From IMG/VR virus record IMGVR_UViG_3300036783_000164, positions 1 through 50,874 of that record: 50,874 bases of DNA. One strand, written 5' to 3'. Source of the DNA: a virus. Each line of letters opens with the position of its first letter. Positions within the stretch are counted from its first letter, which is position 1. The notes below the pieces were generated by a model. The model was not told where the DNA came from. It searched no databases and worked only from the letters and a program-made list of their open reading frames with translations. A program made the position numbers and the translations under genes. Positions 1 through 50,874 of this stretch are shown piece by piece.

Positions 1-112
1 TGCTCAAGATGAATTCGAAGAACTAATAACTCAATTTAGAGAAAAAGACCCAGAAAAACAAAAAGAGATTATGAAATTATTTAAAGACTTAATGAAAATA
101 ACAGGCGATTGA
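1..112 (+). CDS. 3' end of the CI-like XRE repressor gene (duplicate copy of 50748-50859)
   Basis: Same reading frame and sequence as the end of ORF 50473..50859, ending ...KITGD then TGA at 110-112. Confidence 0.7.
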   Translation, partial: AQDEFEELITQFREKDPEKQKEIMKLFKDLMKITGD

Positions 113-127
113 TAGCTTTAGAAGCTA
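1..127. repeat. Terminal overlap identical to 50748-50874 (circular contig closure)
   Basis: The window starts tgctcaagatgaattcgaag. The same string restarts at 50748 and runs to the last base, an offset of 50747. Confidence 0.9.
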
Positions 128-148
128 CCGATCGCCTTTTTCATTTTT
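104..148 (+). terminator. Rho-independent terminator after the CI-like gene, overlapping the 3' end of the convergent small ORF
   Basis: Imperfect inverted repeat ggcgattgatagctt / aagctaccgatcgcc followed by tttttcattttt. Confidence 0.45.
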
Positions 149-267
149 AATATAATTTCAAGTGATTTTTCATCACCTTCGTGTGCCGCTTTCATAACCC
201 CTAATAATTGTGATTCGAATTCTGCTACCTCTGTTACTACCACGTCTTCTAAGTTCTCTTTTTTCAT
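118..267 (-). CDS. Small 49-aa ORF in the aimX position (downstream of aimP)
   Basis: Hand translation gives MKKENLEDVVVTEVAEFESQLLGVMKAAHEGDEKSLEIILKMKKAIGSF. A GGGGG Shine-Dalgarno lies 8 nt upstream. The ORF is below the 60-aa track cutoff. Confidence 0.4.
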   Translation of the reverse strand: MKKENLEDVVVTEVAEFESQLLGVMKAAHEGDEKSLEIILKMKKAIGSF

Positions 268-299
268 CCCTAAAACCCCCATTTTTTATTTATGTAATT

Positions 300-315
300 T
301 GTGAATCGATTCACA
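300..315. promoter_or_regulatory. Perfect 16-bp palindrome TGTGAATCGATTCACA (operator-like)
   Basis: Read directly. It lies between the aimP end and the small ORF start and shares the GTGAA/TTCAC half-site with palindromes in the immunity region. Confidence 0.4.
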
Positions 316-338
316 ATGTTTTCTCGAATATAGAATTT

Positions 339-355
339 GATATTTAGGAAATATC
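339..355. promoter_or_regulatory. Palindrome GATATTT-agg-AAATATC
   Basis: Read directly: 7-bp arms with a 3-bp spacer, just upstream (minus sense) of a TATATT -10-like hexamer. Confidence 0.3.
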
Positions 356-367
356 CCTAGAAACAGC

Positions 368-401
368 GAATGCGATTGCCTCTGTTGAGACAATCGCATT
401 C
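368..401. promoter_or_regulatory. 11-bp inverted repeat GAATGCGATTG-N12-CAATCGCATTC (candidate AimR operator or aimRP terminator hairpin)
   Basis: Perfect arms read directly, about 40 nt downstream of the aimP stop. No clear U-run follows on the minus strand. Confidence 0.35.
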
Positions 402-437
402 TTAATATTTATATTACAATCCTGATAAAATGGGATA

Positions 438-587
438 TTATCCCATTCCACCTCCGGGATCGACCATCATTCTATACGTATTTTCTTGAACAACCTTCGC
501 TGATTGCTCCTTTTGATCTTTAGCAGGAGATATGTATAGTACTCCAACTAGAGTCAATGTCGCTACAATAGCTAACACTTTTTTCAT
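438..587 (-). CDS. aimP: AimP-like arbitrium propeptide, 49 aa
   Basis: Hand translation gives MKKVLAIVATLTLVGVLYISPAKDQKEQSAKVVQENTYRMMVDPGGGMG. It has an N-terminal signal-like hydrophobic segment. Its ATG overlaps the aimR TGA (ATGA). Confidence 0.7.
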   Translation of the reverse strand: MKKVLAIVATLTLVGVLYISPAKDQKEQSAKVVQENTYRMMVDPGGGMG

Positions 588-1810
588 TTAGCATCACCCA
601 TATATATTATACCATTTTTATTAAAATCTACCAACATTTTTCTCGGTAATTTGCTGTAAAATCTGTTCCCTGCGCACTCGAAATCCACTATTGACTCTTC
701 TATCAATTTAATGTCTTTCAACGCATAACCTAAAATGCATTTTTTCATAGGACTTAACTTACCGTCTTTTCTTTCGCATTCCTTTAAAAGTTTAATCGCT
801 ACATCAGACTTTCCGATTAGCGCTTGGTAAAAAGCTTCTTCGCACACATTATAGATTTTAATTTCCTCTATCCCTTTATTACAGACAAGTTTAATAAACG
901 CGAAAGTATTTATAACACTTTCTTTTCTTTTTATCACTCTTTCAAAATGGCATGCGTCTAACATTTCTAACGATTTATTGATATACCAAGAAGCTCTTTC
1001 GTAACTTTCGAAAGTGTAAGACTCTGCAAGATATACTAAAGCTGATGCTCTTAAAAGAGAAAAACAATTTTTTTCGTCTTTTAAATTCATTATTTCATGA
1101 CACAACTCTCTGGATTTCTCGACGTTATCTTGCATTAAATAAGCGTAAGACAACCCTTCTTTAATTCTTCCTGAATATGCCGTTCTAATGAAATCATCTG
1201 GGATTTCTTCGACTTTTGGTTGCAATACTTCAGCATATTCAAACAATGAATTAAATTTTTCTAAATCATACATCGTATAGAAAGTTAGTATTCCATATAA
1301 CACTTTCATTTCTTGTGTCTTAATTACCTTACTTCTCTTACGGTCTTCTAATTTCTCTAATAATCCCTTACCACTAACGACACCCTTATTTCGCATCCAT
1401 ACCAATTCATATACATAAGCCCATTCTCTATTCATCGCCAACGAAGATGTTTTTTCTATATCTACAATCAACTTTAATAATTCTAAGTCACCAATTGCAT
1501 TGGCATATTCCATTGCAATTCGCATATTTTGTTTGCTCGTTGTAACTGAACAAAACTTATGTAGCATTTCTTTCTTTTTTAAAGCGTCGTCACCATACAA
1601 GATGTTAAGCAACTTAATCATATTCCAAAAATTAAATTGGCTCTTGCCTGACAAGTTTTTGGAAAACGATCCGCCTTTGATACCTAACTCCTTCGCAATA
1701 TCTTCTTGATTCCTTCTTTGAAAATCAATTCCATCAATAAGTTTGTTCAAAAATCCCCTTAATGCTTTCTTTTTCAATTCCTCTTGTTTTTGTTTAAGTG
1801 TCTGATCCAT
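584..1810 (-). CDS. aimR: AimR-like arbitrium receptor / HTH-TPR transcription regulator
   Basis: N-terminal HTH (EDIAKELGIKGGSFSKNLSG) followed by an all-helical TPR-like body. Segments recall phi3T AimR: AMEYANAIGDLE vs ALEYADANMFFE, and IKTQEMKVLYGILTFYTMYDLEKF vs IKTPEMNSFSRLLLLYHYLSTGNF. The ATG at 1810 is preceded by AAGGAG. Confidence 0.8.
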   Translation of the reverse strand: MDQTLKQKQEELKKKALRGFLNKLIDGIDFQRRNQEDIAKELGIKGGSFSKNLSGKSQFNFWNMIKLLNILYGDDALKKKEMLHKFCSVTTSKQNMRIAMEYANAIGDLELLKLIVDIEKTSSLAMNREWAYVYELVWMRNKGVVSGKGLLEKLEDRKRSKVIKTQEMKVLYGILTFYTMYDLEKFNSLFEYAEVLQPKVEEIPDDFIRTAYSGRIKEGLSYAYLMQDNVEKSRELCHEIMNLKDEKNCFSLLRASALVYLAESYTFESYERASWYINKSLEMLDACHFERVIKRKESVINTFAFIKLVCNKGIEEIKIYNVCEEAFYQALIGKSDVAIKLLKECERKDGKLSPMKKCILGYALKDIKLIEESIVDFECAGNRFYSKLPRKMLVDFNKNGIIYMGDAK

Positions 1811-1920
1811 CAAATTTGCTCCTTCTGGAACAAAGACGCTTCGCTCTTTCCCTCAAATTTTAAACAGGAAATTCATACCATAGTAATGCTTTAGTAATAT
1901 CGGCATGTTATAATGTAAGT

Positions 1921-2034
1921 GTTACTCGTGTAGTAACCGAAAAGAGACTTATGGCAGATGTTCCCCTTTGTGAGTCGGGCGAACGGTACAAGCAGTGCTC
2001 GCAACACTCTTGTACACGCTGTGAGTCTTTTTTT
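1921..2034 (+). ncRNA. Candidate small RNA (extended -10 promoter to T-run)
   Basis: TGtTATAAT at 1906-1914. A 5' hairpin GTTACT-cgtgt-AGTAAC (1921-1937). A hairpin at about 1986-2015. AAAAGAGACT (1940-1949) can pair with AGTCTTTTTT (2024-2033). T7 run at 2028-2034. No credible ORF. Confidence 0.3.
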
Positions 2035-2341
2035 CGTTCCGTTTATTTTAATGTTTTCATAATACCACATTTTTCCCAAAATTCAGTCGTGTAGTTATCA
2101 GACAATTGTTGAGAAAGTTGAGAAACCGCTTCAAATCAACGTTTCTAAGTGATGTAAAAATAAAATATGCAAATATGCATGGAACGTATAAAAGACTTCA
2201 CATGCATATATTACCATAAAATCGAACTTTTGTTCTATTTTTATTATATTTTTTAGTTGTTAAACGACTAAAATCGCCGTTTGGTTAATAAAACAACTTA
2301 TTGTAGTAGTATGATAGTTCAATATTTATACTTAAATTACT

Positions 2342-2686
2342 ATGATAATCTTTGGACAAACTTTAAAACAGTTAAGAAAGTCGCGTGATTTAACACAAGC
2401 AGAGTTAGCTGAAACTCTTAATTTAAGTCAGAGTCAAATTAAGAATTGGGAAACTGGTCGATTTCAACCGGATATTCAAACTTTAGCGAGTATCGCCTCC
2501 TTTTTCAATGTTTCTTTAGACGTCCTTGTAGGTTTCTCTAACAATTTCGAGGATGAACCAATACAACAAGTCATTTCTGAAGCTAGGTCAACGTATGGGG
2601 CGTTAGACGATGCTCAGAAAGAGCGCTTTTGTAATCAAGTGTTGTTGTTTATTCGAATGATTAAAGATAACCAAGAAACGTTCTGA
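2342..2686 (+). CDS. XRE-family HTH transcriptional regulator
   Basis: LKQLRKSRDLTQAELAETLNLSQSQIKNWETGRFQPDIQTLASIASFFNVSLDVLVG is a canonical HTH_3 pattern. No obvious SD. A TATACT hexamer 9 nt upstream suggests a possibly leaderless mRNA. Confidence 0.8.
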   Translation: MIIFGQTLKQLRKSRDLTQAELAETLNLSQSQIKNWETGRFQPDIQTLASIASFFNVSLDVLVGFSNNFEDEPIQQVISEARSTYGALDDAQKERFCNQVLLFIRMIKDNQETF

Positions 2687-2880
2687 TTTGATTTCATTGT
2701 AGAAGAAAAGTTTTCCAATGAATAGTGGTAAAATTTGACATAATTTGACCAATTGTGGTAAGAGGGCATATTGCTCTCTTTTTTTATTTTCATTCGACAA
2801 AATATGACAAAATAGTTGTAACTGGATTTGTTATGCTTAAATTGAAAATCTTACATTTTAGAAAGAAAGGATGCAATGTT

Positions 2881-3420
2881 ATGGGCTTTAAGTTTAGAAA
2901 AAGTATCAAAGTTGCTCCTGGAGTTAAAGTGAATCTAAGTAGTAAAGGTGTGGGAATGAGTGTAGGAGGAAAGGGTGCTCGTGTCAGCGTAGGCCCATCA
3001 GGTACTAGAGTTACCTCTTCAATTCCAGGCACTGGACTTTCTTACGAAAAACGTATTAGTAATAAAAAGAATAGAACTATCCAAAAGAGATCAGCTCAAG
3101 AATATCAGGAACAATATTACCCTGGTACATATGAAGTTAATACTTTCCAAACAAAAGATAATAAGTTAAATCATGGCGCTAGAAAATTAATGAAACCATT
3201 TTTCATAATTTCAATAATTTCTAGTATTATTTCAGCGATTTTATTACCACCTATTTTCGCTATAGTTTTTGCTGTATATAGTTTCTTTTGTTATAAAAAC
3301 TTCAAGGTGCCACACTCCGCGATATGTCCTGGTTGTAATAAGGAAAATACAATGTTATTCAAACGTAAAAAGATAAAATGTATCAAGTGTAGAAGTACAC
3401 TCAATATTAAAAATAAATAA
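2881..3420 (+). CDS. DUF4236-like protein with C-terminal TM segment and zinc ribbon
   Basis: MGFKFRKSIKVAPGVKVNLSSKGVGMSVGGKGARVSVGPSG matches the DUF4236 signature from memory. Hydrophobic FFIISIISSIISAILLPPIFAIVFAV, then CPGC...CIKC. Start moved to the internal ATG at 2881. Confidence 0.65.
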   Translation: MGFKFRKSIKVAPGVKVNLSSKGVGMSVGGKGARVSVGPSGTRVTSSIPGTGLSYEKRISNKKNRTIQKRSAQEYQEQYYPGTYEVNTFQTKDNKLNHGARKLMKPFFIISIISSIISAILLPPIFAIVFAVYSFFCYKNFKVPHSAICPGCNKENTMLFKRKKIKCIKCRSTLNIKNK

Positions 3421-3453
3421 ACTCACTACAAGATTATAGCTGGAGGACGTTTT

Positions 3454-4320
3454 ATGAAAATATCTAATAAAGCGCTGAGTATAAGTGGTATAGCAATTCT
3501 GCTTATACTCTTTGTAAGAGGAATCTATAATAGTATCAATATGTTTGGTGACACTGAATATGGATTTGGATATATTTTAGGGCAAGCAATTGGAGGAACT
3601 TTAGCCTGGTTTAGTATTATTGCATTCATCGTATCTTTAATTTTCTTGGTTATTGGTATTGTGAAGAAAATCAAAAAAACAGGGACTAGAAAACTATTCA
3701 TTACATCAGCTGTTTCGTTTGGAATATCTGTTGCATCTATAGCTATACTTACAGGGATTAGTTTTGTGACTGGTAACATAGAAATTGAACATGAAAAGAT
3801 AGCTGAACAGAAAAAGAAAGATGATGAATATTTAATGGCTGCAGCTAACTTTTACAATGACATTGATTCATTTGAAATGTATTCAACTCTGGTTTTATCC
3901 GGATACTCCAATACATGGTCTGAAGCAATTAAAAACCAAAAAGATTTTAATGTGGAATTAGTTTCTAAAAAAAACGAATCTGAGACCTTGGTCAATCATG
4001 GTGATTTACTCCATACCGAAATGGGGCAACAATTAAAACTAGTTTCAGAGGCTTCTAAAGAACACCCAAAAGAATATAAAGAAGTGTATGAAGAATATAA
4101 AAAGATATATAGCATTATAACGGCGCTCAATGAACAAATGACTTCACCTACTGGTAGCTTAATTTCATTTAATCAGAATGTTAATGCTTTAATTCAAGAA
4201 TATAAAAAGGCTCAAGGGAGTATTAAAATAGCAATTACAGATGAAATTAAAAGTAAATCTGAACAAATCGAAGAATCCAGAACAAAAAAAGCTAATGAAA
4301 CAAAAGTGAATAAAATATAG
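3454..4320 (+). CDS. Membrane protein with long C-terminal coiled-coil/helical domain
   Basis: Three or four hydrophobic segments in the first 110 aa, then a charged helical region. SD ggagga lies upstream. Confidence 0.65.
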   Translation: MKISNKALSISGIAILLILFVRGIYNSINMFGDTEYGFGYILGQAIGGTLAWFSIIAFIVSLIFLVIGIVKKIKKTGTRKLFITSAVSFGISVASIAILTGISFVTGNIEIEHEKIAEQKKKDDEYLMAAANFYNDIDSFEMYSTLVLSGYSNTWSEAIKNQKDFNVELVSKKNESETLVNHGDLLHTEMGQQLKLVSEASKEHPKEYKEVYEEYKKIYSIITALNEQMTSPTGSLISFNQNVNALIQEYKKAQGSIKIAITDEIKSKSEQIEESRTKKANETKVNKI

Positions 4321-4555
4321 ATTTTGTTCACTTTTACGATACATTTATGAAACATTTATATGTTACGTTATATAAGTCCTTTTTTTGAATCATTTTCATT
4401 CTGTCAAAAAGTCCCAGTCCCCTCTAGGGCTTTTTACGTTTAAATAGAGAAGTGTAGCATATTTCTCAATGCATAAAATTACTTAACATGGTAAAATAAC
4501 ATTTGGATTAGCGTCCAATACATATTATTAAAATTAAAGTGGTTCAAGTCGGAGG

Positions 4556-4580
4556 AAGGCACCTTAGGGTGTCTTTTCTT
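4556..4580 (+). terminator. Rho-independent terminator for the 2342-4320 operon
   Basis: AAGGCACC-ttag-GGTGTCTT followed by ttctttat. Confidence 0.5.
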
Positions 4581-4582
4581 TA

Positions 4583-4611
4583 TAAAAAATCCCCTACACA
4601 TAAGAAGGGGA
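4583..4611 (-). terminator. Rho-independent terminator for gene 4624-5193
   Basis: On the minus strand, TCCCCT-tcttatgtgt-AGGGGA followed by TTTTTTAT. Confidence 0.55.
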
Positions 4612-4623
4612 CATACAAGATTT

Positions 4624-5193
4624 CTATATAATAACATCATCTTTATTTAAAATTTTTATAGCTTTTTTATTAATCTTTGCAACCTCTTTACTTATCAAAG
4701 GTAAATCAAATTCATGATCTTTGAATGTTATTTTTAATTCTTCTTTATCGAAAAACTTAAGATGAGTATCTGGATCTATATCGAATCTATCTTTAACCCC
4801 AATACAAGCGTTAGTATATACATTAGATTTAGAACTTCTCGACCAATCAAACATTTTTTCATCAAAATGTTCAAAGCAATTCCTTACTTTTCTAGATTTT
4901 AATGGAGAATCATCAGTAACTTTTAAAATGTTTCTTAAATATTCTCTATCACGATCCTCGTCTTCTTTTTTCTTTCTCTCCTCATCATTCCTTGGATTTT
5001 TAAATGAACCCCATAATAACTTTGCTATATTAGCACTAGAATTTAAAAAAGACTGAGCATAAAACCAAAAGGCTCCTGCATCTACCTCATATTCTTGATT
5101 CAAGGCATTTTCCATTCCTTCAGTTGCATAAGAAACAAACTCACATTGAAGGTTTATTTCCAGTAAAAAAGCATGTTTAGTTAATTCATTCAT
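4624..5193 (-). CDS. Hypothetical protein with HEPN-like Rx4H motif (candidate RNase/abortive-infection-type moron)
   Basis: 189 aa, predicted all-helical. RNCFEH (R-x4-H) lies in the C-terminal half and an acidic/basic linker is in the middle. The gene is monocistronic with its own terminator. Confidence 0.55.
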   Translation of the reverse strand: MNELTKHAFLLEINLQCEFVSYATEGMENALNQEYEVDAGAFWFYAQSFLNSSANIAKLLWGSFKNPRNDEERKKKEDEDRDREYLRNILKVTDDSPLKSRKVRNCFEHFDEKMFDWSRSSKSNVYTNACIGVKDRFDIDPDTHLKFFDKEELKITFKDHEFDLPLISKEVAKINKKAIKILNKDDVII

Positions 5194-7655: not shown

Positions 7656-7899
7656 TACAGAAAGAAATGTTCAGAGTACAAATAATAACACCACGCCCCA
7701 AAAGAAAGTTTTAACAGCACAAGATAGAAAGAACATAAAAGTAACTCCTGAATCATTTAGCAAAATTAAAACCATTTGTACAATGAAGAGTATGAAGAAT
7801 TATGAATTCATTGATGAAATTTTAGAGTTCTACATTGCTAATAATTTAACTGAGCGTGAGCAACGTATACTTAAAAATATAACTTCTAGTAACAAGTAG
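7600..7899 (+). CDS. Small partition partner (ParB/ParG-like centromere-binding protein candidate)
   Basis: 99 aa with a GTG start overlapping the parA 3' end. Basic, low-complexity N-terminus and a helical C-terminus. The call rests on position only. Confidence 0.45.
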   Translation: MALIKRETPQEPKIAQSANTERNVQSTNNNTTPQKKVLTAQDRKNIKVTPESFSKIKTICTMKSMKNYEFIDEILEFYIANNLTEREQRILKNITSSNK

Positions 7900-7934
7900 A
7901 TATGAGGAAATCCCGTCCTCATAGCATTCCTTTA

Positions 7935-7987
7935 TGTATCTTTGTATCTTTGTATCTTTGTATCTAAAGATACATGTATCTTTTTTT
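7935..7987. repeat. Inverted-orientation array TGTATCTT x4 plus palindrome TGTATCT-aa-AGATACA plus TGTATCTT
   Basis: Read directly: tgtatctttgtatctttgtatctttgtatctaaagatacatgtatcttttttt. It is the reverse complement of the repeat unit upstream of parA. Confidence 0.85.
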
Positions 7988-8213
7988 AAAAGGGACACTA
8001 ATATTCATACTGTATATCGAGTGAAGCTGAAGAAAAGTCGAGAATAGGTATAAGGTTTAACTTTATACCTATCTAAATAAACTCATTTATAAAAAGCAAA
8101 AGGGAGATAAGCATAACGCTTGTCTTTTTTATTTATTCTCAAAGGTTTTTAGGGAGGATTGTAGATTCTTAGGGAGAATGTTGCAATAGGAACGAAAGGG
8201 GGAACGGATATAA

Positions 8214-50048: not shown

Positions 50049-50069
50049 ATGTTCACGTTTCGTGAACAT
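50049..50069. promoter_or_regulatory. Palindrome ATGTTCACG-ttt-CGTGAACAT (operator-like) between the cro-like and ant genes
   Basis: Read directly. It shares the GTTCAC/GTGAAC half-sites with 50344-50360. Confidence 0.45.
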
Positions 50070-50098: not shown

Positions 50099-50299
50099 TT
50101 AACCTTCTACTAATTCGTCAACTGTAACATCATACAATTTAGATAGTAAACCCAATCTGTATATACTCGGTTGCCTCTTGCCAGACTCAAGTTGTGAATA
50201 AGCAGATTTTGTTGAGTACCCAAGATAATCGCCCACATAAGCCTGACTATAACCACGATTCTTGCGTAACGCTTTGGCTTTTTCTATATTTAATTTCAT
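50099..50299 (-). CDS. Cro-like XRE HTH regulator, first gene of the leftward early operon
   Basis: LRKNRGYSQAYVGDYLGYSTKSAYSQLESGKRQPSIYRLGLLSKLYDVTVDELV. The ATG at 50299 follows AAAGGTG. Confidence 0.8.
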   Translation of the reverse strand: MKLNIEKAKALRKNRGYSQAYVGDYLGYSTKSAYSQLESGKRQPSIYRLGLLSKLYDVTVDELVEG

Positions 50300-50330
50300 G
50301 TTTATCACCTTTGTTCGTTTCGTTAATTTG

Positions 50331-50360
50331 ATAATAACACGACGTTCACTATTTGTGAAC
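50331..50360 (-). promoter_or_regulatory. Leftward early promoter with overlapping operator
   Basis: On the minus strand, TTCACA (-35), a 17-nt spacer, then TGtTATTAT (extended -10). The palindrome GTTCAC-aaata-GTGAAC covers the -35 and the spacer. Confidence 0.5.
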
Positions 50361-50508: not shown

Positions 50509-50859
50509 ATGAATTACCAATTAATTAGCAAGAGGGTTAAAGAAATCAGGACTGAAATACTCAAAATGAGTCAATCTGAATTCATTAATGCACTTGGACT
50601 AAAAAGTAAATCAGCAGTTTCTATGTGGGAAAACGAAGAAATGGATAAATGCCCATCTAGAAAAACTTCTTTAGATATAGCAAAACTCGCAAATGTATCT
50701 GTAGCTTATGTATTAGGAGAATCTGATGAAAAGAATCCTATTACAAGTGCTCAAGATGAATTCGAAGAACTAATAACTCAATTTAGAGAAAAAGACCCAG
50801 AAAAACAAAAAGAGATTATGAAATTATTTAAAGACTTAATGAAAATAACAGGCGATTGA
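50509..50859 (+). CDS. CI-like XRE-family repressor (116 aa)
   Basis: IRTEILKMSQSEFINALGLKSKSAVSMWENEE. Divergent from the cro-like gene. Start moved to the ATG at 50509, after AAGGGGAG. Confidence 0.75.
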   Translation: MNYQLISKRVKEIRTEILKMSQSEFINALGLKSKSAVSMWENEEMDKCPSRKTSLDIAKLANVSVAYVLGESDEKNPITSAQDEFEELITQFREKDPEKQKEIMKLFKDLMKITGD

Positions 50860-50874
50860 TAGCTTTAGAAGCTA
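50748..50874. repeat. Terminal overlap identical to 1-127
   Basis: See the feature at 1-127. Confidence 0.9.

Follow-up and report, generated by a model that had tools for sequence, protein, structure and literature searches.

The viral record IMGVR_UViG_3300036783_000164 of the IMG/VR database is a complete virus of 50,874 nt, and the whole of it (the window) was analysed here, with emphasis on the control region around aimP and aimX in its arbitrium locus. Positions 1–127 are identical to positions 50748–50874, and this 127-bp direct terminal repeat means that the record is circular. The virus is a circular phage-plasmid of the Bacillus cereus group; the named relatives that match it are all B. 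cereus-group phages, with PfNC7401 and PfIS075 the closest (80% identity across 1–2400) and Waukesha92, phiS58 and TP21T giving partial matches. We consider it quite probable that the control region serves as the core, acting in cis, from which an extended arbitrium module is regulated, with the mechanism proposed below.

The gene for the arbitrium peptide receptor, aimR (584–1813, minus strand), encodes 409 amino acids (aa) that match the Pfam family AimR (PF22871) over residues 82–394 (E 1.5e-42) and are 78–95% identical to the AimR proteins of 15 IMG/VR phage loci. A scan of genome contigs with AimR yielded only three loci. On the same strand, aimP (438–587) is an open reading frame (ORF) for a 49-aa pro-peptide ending in MMVDPGGGMG, which matches phrog_2682 (2.4e-18) and has the same C-terminal tail in relatives. 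Further along this strand lies aimX (118–267), which encodes a small antirepressor of 49 aa behind a Shine–Dalgarno sequence, GGGGG (275–279), 8 nt before the ATG. AimX matches phrog_7267, a family of 45 positions and unknown function, over residues 3–49 (3.8e-22), and is 43% identical (E 3e-8) to the product of the Waukesha92 small ORF that occupies the aimX position; the 49-codon ORF with its ribosome-binding site, which the initial annotation had placed at the aimX position, is thus a real gene. The aimX genes of relatives begin at a matching ATG behind GGAGG, which establishes that the 49-codon reading is right and rules out a reading of 54 codons. AlphaFold2, supplied with an alignment of six sequences, predicts that AimX consists of two helices (residues 6–29 and 33–45), with a mean predicted local distance difference test score of 89.

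The gene convergent with aimX is a CI-like repressor gene, as had been supposed, namely aimC (50509–50859, plus strand), whose 116-aa product contains only the Pfam helix-turn-helix (HTH) domain HTH_3 and no cleavage domain. AimC is 66% identical to its homologues in Waukesha92 and PfNC7401, and a search of its sequence against the PDB gave no match. Its last 36 codons are repeated at 2–112 through the terminal repeat, so that the plus-strand frame ending at 112 is the tail of the gene at 50509–50859, and the CI-like frame at 2–112 is the same gene; the repeat also doubles part of the terminator common to aimX and aimC. Divergent from aimC is aimL (50099–50308, minus strand), a cro-like gene for 69 aa (Pfam HTH_3, 4.5e-14), followed by AntA, YqaJ and RecT genes. 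The aimX stop (118–120) lies 5 bp from the aimC TGA (110–112), and direct reading of the sequence confirms that the two stops share one hairpin. This two-way terminator (104–137) covers both stops, has T-rich runs on both sides, folds at −22.5 kcal/mol on the minus strand and −20.2 kcal/mol on the plus strand, and is kept in PfNC7401 and Waukesha92.

Kabel et al. (2025, bioRxiv 10.1101/2025.11.23.689978) defined the extended arbitrium module as aimR, aimP, aimX, a convergent aimC and a divergent aimL, and their tests covered phi106, phiW23, Wbeta, BMBtp14 and a Waukesha92-like phage. In that study, AimX, a small protein, takes AimC off the aimL promoter by binding the C-terminal oligomerisation domain of the repressor, and relief of AimC repression by AimX was shown also in the Waukesha92-like phage. 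As marks of the module we took an adjacent downstream aimP, a small ORF of 29–80 aa on the same strand, a convergent single-HTH repressor of 80–140 aa that has no autocleavage domain, and a divergent cro-like HTH gene heading the early lytic operon. All of them are found in the window: AimR with aimP, the ORF of 49 aa, the HTH_3 repressor of 116 aa, and the HTH_3 protein of 69 aa with AntA, YqaJ and RecT behind it.

Four palindromes lie in the control region, as direct reading confirms at the coordinates first given: AATGGGATA-t-TATCCCATT (429–447), GAATGCGATTG-N12-CAATCGCATTC (368–401), GATATTT-CCT-AAATATC (339–355) and TGTGAATCGATTCACA (300–315), the last of which extends with its flanks to TTGTGAA-TCGA-TTCACAA (299–316). 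When perfect inverted repeats with arms of at least 7 and spacers of at most 12 were counted, the 161 bp from 290 to 450 contained four, against a mean of 0.28 in dinucleotide shuffles (0 of 2000 shuffles reached four). This excess is non-random and supports the earlier description of a dense control region; the rest of the 50.9-kb phage has one further spot with four such repeats, at about 7841–8080. The palindrome at 429–447 lies over the aimP stop (438–440), and one of its arms is the G-M-G coding end of aimP. Its minus-strand RNA folds at −12.4 kcal/mol. Only loci L005 and L016, the closest relatives, keep it perfect; elsewhere it is altered, and the PfNC7401 group and Waukesha92 lack it through deletion. 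It is weakly conserved, and of the four palindromes it is the one to which the analysis assigns no role.

The inverted repeat at 368–401 belongs to the transcriptional terminator of aimP (TT; 359–401, minus strand), identified by a terminator scan and by folding. The supposed N12 loop is in fact base-paired, so that the stem reaches 15 bp and closes on a 4-nt AACA loop; GCUGUUUCU follows it, and on the minus strand this hairpin folds at −24.6 kcal/mol (z −8.7). A hairpin follows aimP in all 17 loci that were folded, of very diverse AimR types; these hairpins (12–22 pairs, −17 to −26 kcal/mol) occupy the same place and have a short U-rich tail, and their stem sequences are unlike one another. 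The strong hairpin between aimP and aimX corresponds to the intrinsic terminator of the antitermination unit of phi3T and SPbeta. In those phages the terminator halts the transcript begun at the aimP promoter, AimR acts as an antiterminator from a site immediately past it, and no separate promoter serves aimX (Zamora-Caballero et al. 2024, PMC10769878). By analogy, the hairpin at 368–401 is the likely target of AimR antitermination in the window, and aimX is probably transcribed by read-through from the aimP promoter. The best promoter match within 1–2400 in a consensus scan (10/12) is TTGGTA-17-TATAAT, with TG before the −10, at 634–606 on the minus strand, inside the 3' end of aimR; its TGnTATAAT is kept in PfNC7401 and Waukesha92, and it presumably functions as the aimP promoter. 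The same kind of scan, by consensus only, found no promoter-like site on the minus strand in 270–360. Under read-through from the aimP promoter, as in phi3T, the absence of a transcript start in that interval would be the expected outcome.

The terminator stems of the 17 loci mostly start with GAATG or AAATG and finish with CATTC or CATTT, and a short (G)TTT(T)A...GGG motif comes after them; this frame, conserved where the stems vary, may be relevant to how AimR acts. An Rfam scan of 1–5000 found nothing beyond a sub-threshold microRNA match on the aimP terminator hairpin.

Just past the terminator, GATATTT-CCT-AAATATC (339–355) is the best candidate for the AimR operator. Folding gives no stable RNA hairpin for this repeat, and it is invariant across all loci with the AimR type of the window, down to 60–64% AimR identity. 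Loci with other AimR types have a different inverted repeat at the same position, about 13–17 nt past the terminator: TTCGAAGTT-N14-AACTTCGAA in Waukesha92, TTCGGTTTTT-N12-AAAAACCGAA in locus L020, repeats with 12-bp arms in PHBA67-J and BMBtp16, AGTGGAAA-N24-TTTCCACT in 0105phi7-2, and GTGACACA-N23-TGTGTCAC in HD29phi. The repeat is singled out as the candidate because it is specific to the AimR type; in every type the repeat begins at a constant distance from the terminator. In the other types the outer six bases of the repeats are 20–28 bp apart, which matches the solved SPbeta operator of AimR, 6-N25-6 (Gallego del Sol et al. 2019, PMC6458997). A possible degenerate third box, ATATTC, lies nearby at 325–330. 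By its conservation 339–355 is a candidate AimR site, and the exact boxes assigned to it could equally well prove right or wrong. Another candidate, TAATAT-N26-ATATTA (404–409 and 436–441), has the canonical spacing, but it lies upstream of the terminator, consists of A and T only, and is missing from L017, L019 and the PfNC7401 group; it was rejected.

At the other end of the module, GTTCAC-N5-GTGAAC occurs in the phage in two perfect copies only, against 0.01 expected. The first (50344–50360) is at the aimL promoter, just before its −10, TGTTATTAT, and the second is at 50051–50067. Position and rarity suggest that both are AimC operators. The two copies are 293 bp apart, and the second falls in the interval from aimL to the AntA antirepressor-like gene, where it covers the annotated upstream ATG of the latter. 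Looping between the two operators by an AimC tetramer is conceivable.

Taken together, these features suggest the following sequence of events. Transcription would start at the promoter at 634–606 and read aimP, after which the polymerase would meet the strong, U-poor terminator hairpin at 401–368. Peptide-free AimR, bound to the type-specific repeat just downstream (355–339), would permit read-through; once AimP peptide had accumulated, AimR would release the DNA and transcription would stop at the hairpin. The read-through RNA would cross the palindrome at 316–299 and be translated into the two-helix AimX of 49 residues, which would bind the C-terminal oligomerisation domain of AimC. AimC would then leave its GTTCAC-N5-GTGAAC operators, and aimL and the early lytic genes would be turned on. 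The hairpin at 104–137 would end both the aimX and the aimC transcripts. The gene identities, homologies, hairpins and patterns of conservation are observations made in this analysis, and the antitermination, the AimR site and the interaction of AimX with AimC would follow from what is known of relatives.

Several points weigh against this interpretation. The spacer of the candidate AimR operator is 3 bp, as opposed to 20–28 bp in all other types, and the sole long-spacer partner, GGATAT-N19-ATATTC, is imperfect (5/6). The U-tract of the aimP terminator is short, the conserved palindrome at 299–316 has no assigned role in the read-through model, and the phage is known here from its sequence alone. 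Metatranscriptome contigs of relatives, from soil and tick, include one that bridges aimR, aimP, the terminator and aimX of another type and a second that bridges the 3' end of aimC and aimX; these show neither strand nor transcript ends, DNA contamination of the RNA libraries is possible, and they give a weak hint of transcription.

The palindrome at 299–316 accordingly deserves separate consideration. The AimR–AimP type of the window is joined in relatives to at least four AimX–AimC–AimL types, whose operators at the aimL promoter are GTTCAC/GTGAAC, GTTCTC/GAGAC, GTTTAC/GTAAAC and TTGACC/GGTCAA. The arms of the palindrome are kept across all four, and also in loci whose AimR is only 27–30% identical. 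Since the arms are constant across both AimC and AimR types, the palindrome is specific to neither protein. It is absent from PHBA67-J, Athena, BMBtp14, B83, IEBH, BMBtp16, phBC6A51 and HD29phi, and 0105phi7-2 retains half of it. Among 38 loci no second copy was found, so that there is one per locus. Many B. cereus-group phages have, past the AimR site and before aimX, a palindrome with fixed arms that published models do not explain.

One possible explanation, which we put forward tentatively and with considerable doubt, is that the palindrome forms a small RNA hairpin in the aimX leader, concerned with stability or processing, or that it is a conserved junction for recombination between aimR–aimP and aimX–aimC–aimL. 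Spacers of 3 nt and of 4 nt both occur, and the sole internal change in the arms, TTCGCAA in L012 and L027, retains a G–U pair in RNA. Homology between module types breaks at or just past the palindrome, and that of one RNA contig breaks at its centre (307). However, the hairpin is weak (−5.4 kcal/mol, z −2.3), and the arms are conserved as sequence, with no true compensatory changes between them, a pattern more usual in sites bound by proteins. The AimR–AimP type with the peptide tail DPGGGMG is found with at least four unrelated AimX–AimC–AimL cassettes (L005–L019 compared with window positions 265–320), and the position of the breakpoints, at or just past the palindrome, shows modular exchange of the sensor and effector halves.

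A protein site of a particular kind is suggested by the sequence itself, which matches the operator consensus of Rex, TTGTGAAnnnnTTCACAA, at 14 of 14 positions and is the only perfect match in the phage; this consensus is the one used for B. cereus and Staphylococcus aureus (Pagels et al. 2010, PMC2883068; PMC4162614). On this explanation, Rex of the host, a sensor of NADH/NAD+, would bind 299–316 and, at low NADH, keep the polymerase from reading through into aimX or block a weak promoter at the site. A B. cereus-group host genome with a related arbitrium locus has four perfect boxes of the N4 pattern and three with one mismatch. Of five loci examined, the three that carry perfect boxes precede an adhE-like gene, the L-lactate dehydrogenase gene (ldh) and a lactate permease gene, and one with a single mismatch precedes a formate/nitrite transporter gene; all of these genes are standard Rex targets. 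There is also a precedent for the box of a host repressor between aimP and aimX, namely that of LexA in the phi106 family, where mutation of the box derepresses aimX and leaves peptide control intact (Aframian et al. 2021, 10.1101/2021.09.20.460909). The window has no LexA box upstream of aimX: CGAAC-N4-GTTCG was not found in 100–640 with up to two mismatches, nor was a LexA box found between aimP and aimX in the 38 related loci.

The spacer, however, argues against Rex. The same arms are separated by 3 nt in 27 of about 30 related loci and by 4 nt only in the window, L019 and L012. An altered spacer length strongly impairs binding by S. aureus Rex, and G or C in the spacer lowers affinity; the spacer of the window, TCGA, is half G/C and not A/T-rich, and it is neither of fixed length nor conserved. 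Moreover, the N3 pattern has no perfect match in the host genome, and no promoter-like site overlaps the box. With spacers mostly of 3 nt and Rex binding so sensitive to the spacer, the element of the family as a whole is probably not a Rex site, and in the window a chance insertion of 1 bp may have produced the N4 form and, with it, a Rex box. For these reasons we regard binding by Rex as unlikely. If it did occur, lysis would require both low peptide and a reduced host, as an addition to the read-through mechanism and not a replacement for it. Equally unlikely is the broader proposal that, with Rex rather than LexA between the terminator and aimX, the decision would integrate peptide with NADH/NAD+, and TTGTGAA-N3/4-TTCACAA would be an undescribed third input. 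A literature search found no publication linking arbitrium with Rex. In an IMG/VR scan for the N4 box, the matches listed came from unrelated metagenome viruses and were left out of account.

By its sequence, a site of the FNR/CRP type (TGTGA-N6-TCACA) cannot be told apart from a Rex box. A ResD motif, TTTGTGAAT, was considered and dropped, the full-text matches in the literature being unrelated. CcpA cre, PlcR, ARG and LacI-type boxes, compared by eye, have spacings that do not fit. The product of the XRE gene at 2342 was rejected as the binder, because Athena has that gene but not the palindrome and the two do not correlate.

The convergence of aimX and aimC, 5 bp apart, was initially taken to mean that an AimR-activated transcript could collide with repressor expression or be antisense to it, that is, that the transcript would run past the aimX stop into aimC and lower the repressor by RNA pairing or polymerase collision. 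An antisense effect was raised by Stokar-Avihail et al. 2019, as cited in Kabel et al. 2025 (10.1101/2025.11.23.689978), where RNA sequencing of two related phages reportedly showed aimX transcripts over the repressor gene; the RNA-library contig that spans the aimC 3' end and aimX points the same way. In phi106 and phiW23, however, recoded aimX alleles and alleles with the start changed to a stop showed that the protein is required and that the RNA has little effect in cis or in trans. There is no overlap between the two ORFs of the window, and the two-way terminator that separates them places a hairpin of −22.5 kcal/mol with a U-rich tail after aimX. The idea has largely given negative results when tested in relatives, and we judge such an effect on the repressor very unlikely here. 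Scarcely credible is the suggestion that peptide sensing and immunity are cross-wired, with AimC binding 300–315 through a GTGAA half-site reused from the CI/Cro operators and so repressing its own antirepressor: the GTGAA/TTCAC pentamer is indeed common to the palindrome and to GTTCAC-N5-GTGAAC, but the half-sites at 300–315 face the opposite way and are 2 bp rather than 5 bp apart, and the palindrome is unchanged in loci of three other AimC and operator types and beside an AimR of 27% identity.

On the other side of aimR, the best LexA-like box of the phage, CGAACTTTTGTTCT, is found at 2223–2236, about 105 bp upstream of an XRE gene for 114 aa (2342–2686). The same box recurs at the corresponding position in 16 related loci of differing AimR types, among them Waukesha92, BMBtp3, IEBH, Athena, CUBc25 and 0105phi7-2, and none of these 16 has a LexA box at aimX. 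The SOS input may enter these phages at this box, and its conservation bears on a question left open by Kabel et al. 2025. Within the non-coding interval 1814–2341, which is shared by numerous B. cereus-group phages, including ones whose aimR is very different, the depth of metatranscriptome contigs peaks at 1981–2160 (40–97, compared with about 5–15 elsewhere). This peak fits a candidate small RNA, although summed contigs of relatives are no proof of one.

The type of module and its logic, from peptide to AimR, small antirepressor and CI-like repressor, have already been described, and the present locus adds a well-annotated member. It resembles the modules of Kabel et al. 2025 in its five genes, their order and orientation, in a small helical AimX, in a short HTH AimC that has no cleavage domain, and in an aimL followed by early lytic genes. 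It differs from Waukesha92 in that AimX is only 43% and AimC 66% identical, and in the AimC half-site, which is GTGAAC here and GAGAC there. With phi3T and SPbeta it shares the order of promoter, aimP, strong hairpin, inverted repeat and small ORF, whereas the repeat here is of 17 bp with a 3-bp spacer, and AimX would target a CI-like repressor in place of MazF or phi3T_93. As in the phi106 family, a palindrome of the host-repressor type stands between the AimR-controlled element and aimX, but here it matches a Rex operator and not a LexA box. Compared with the Rex operators of Firmicutes (PMC2883068; PMC4162614), both 7-bp arms and the 4-nt spacing are exact, whereas the spacer is half G/C, the setting is a phage leader and not the promoter of a fermentation gene, and relatives have a 3-nt spacer. 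The one unexpected detail of this locus is a perfect match to the host Rex site just before aimX.

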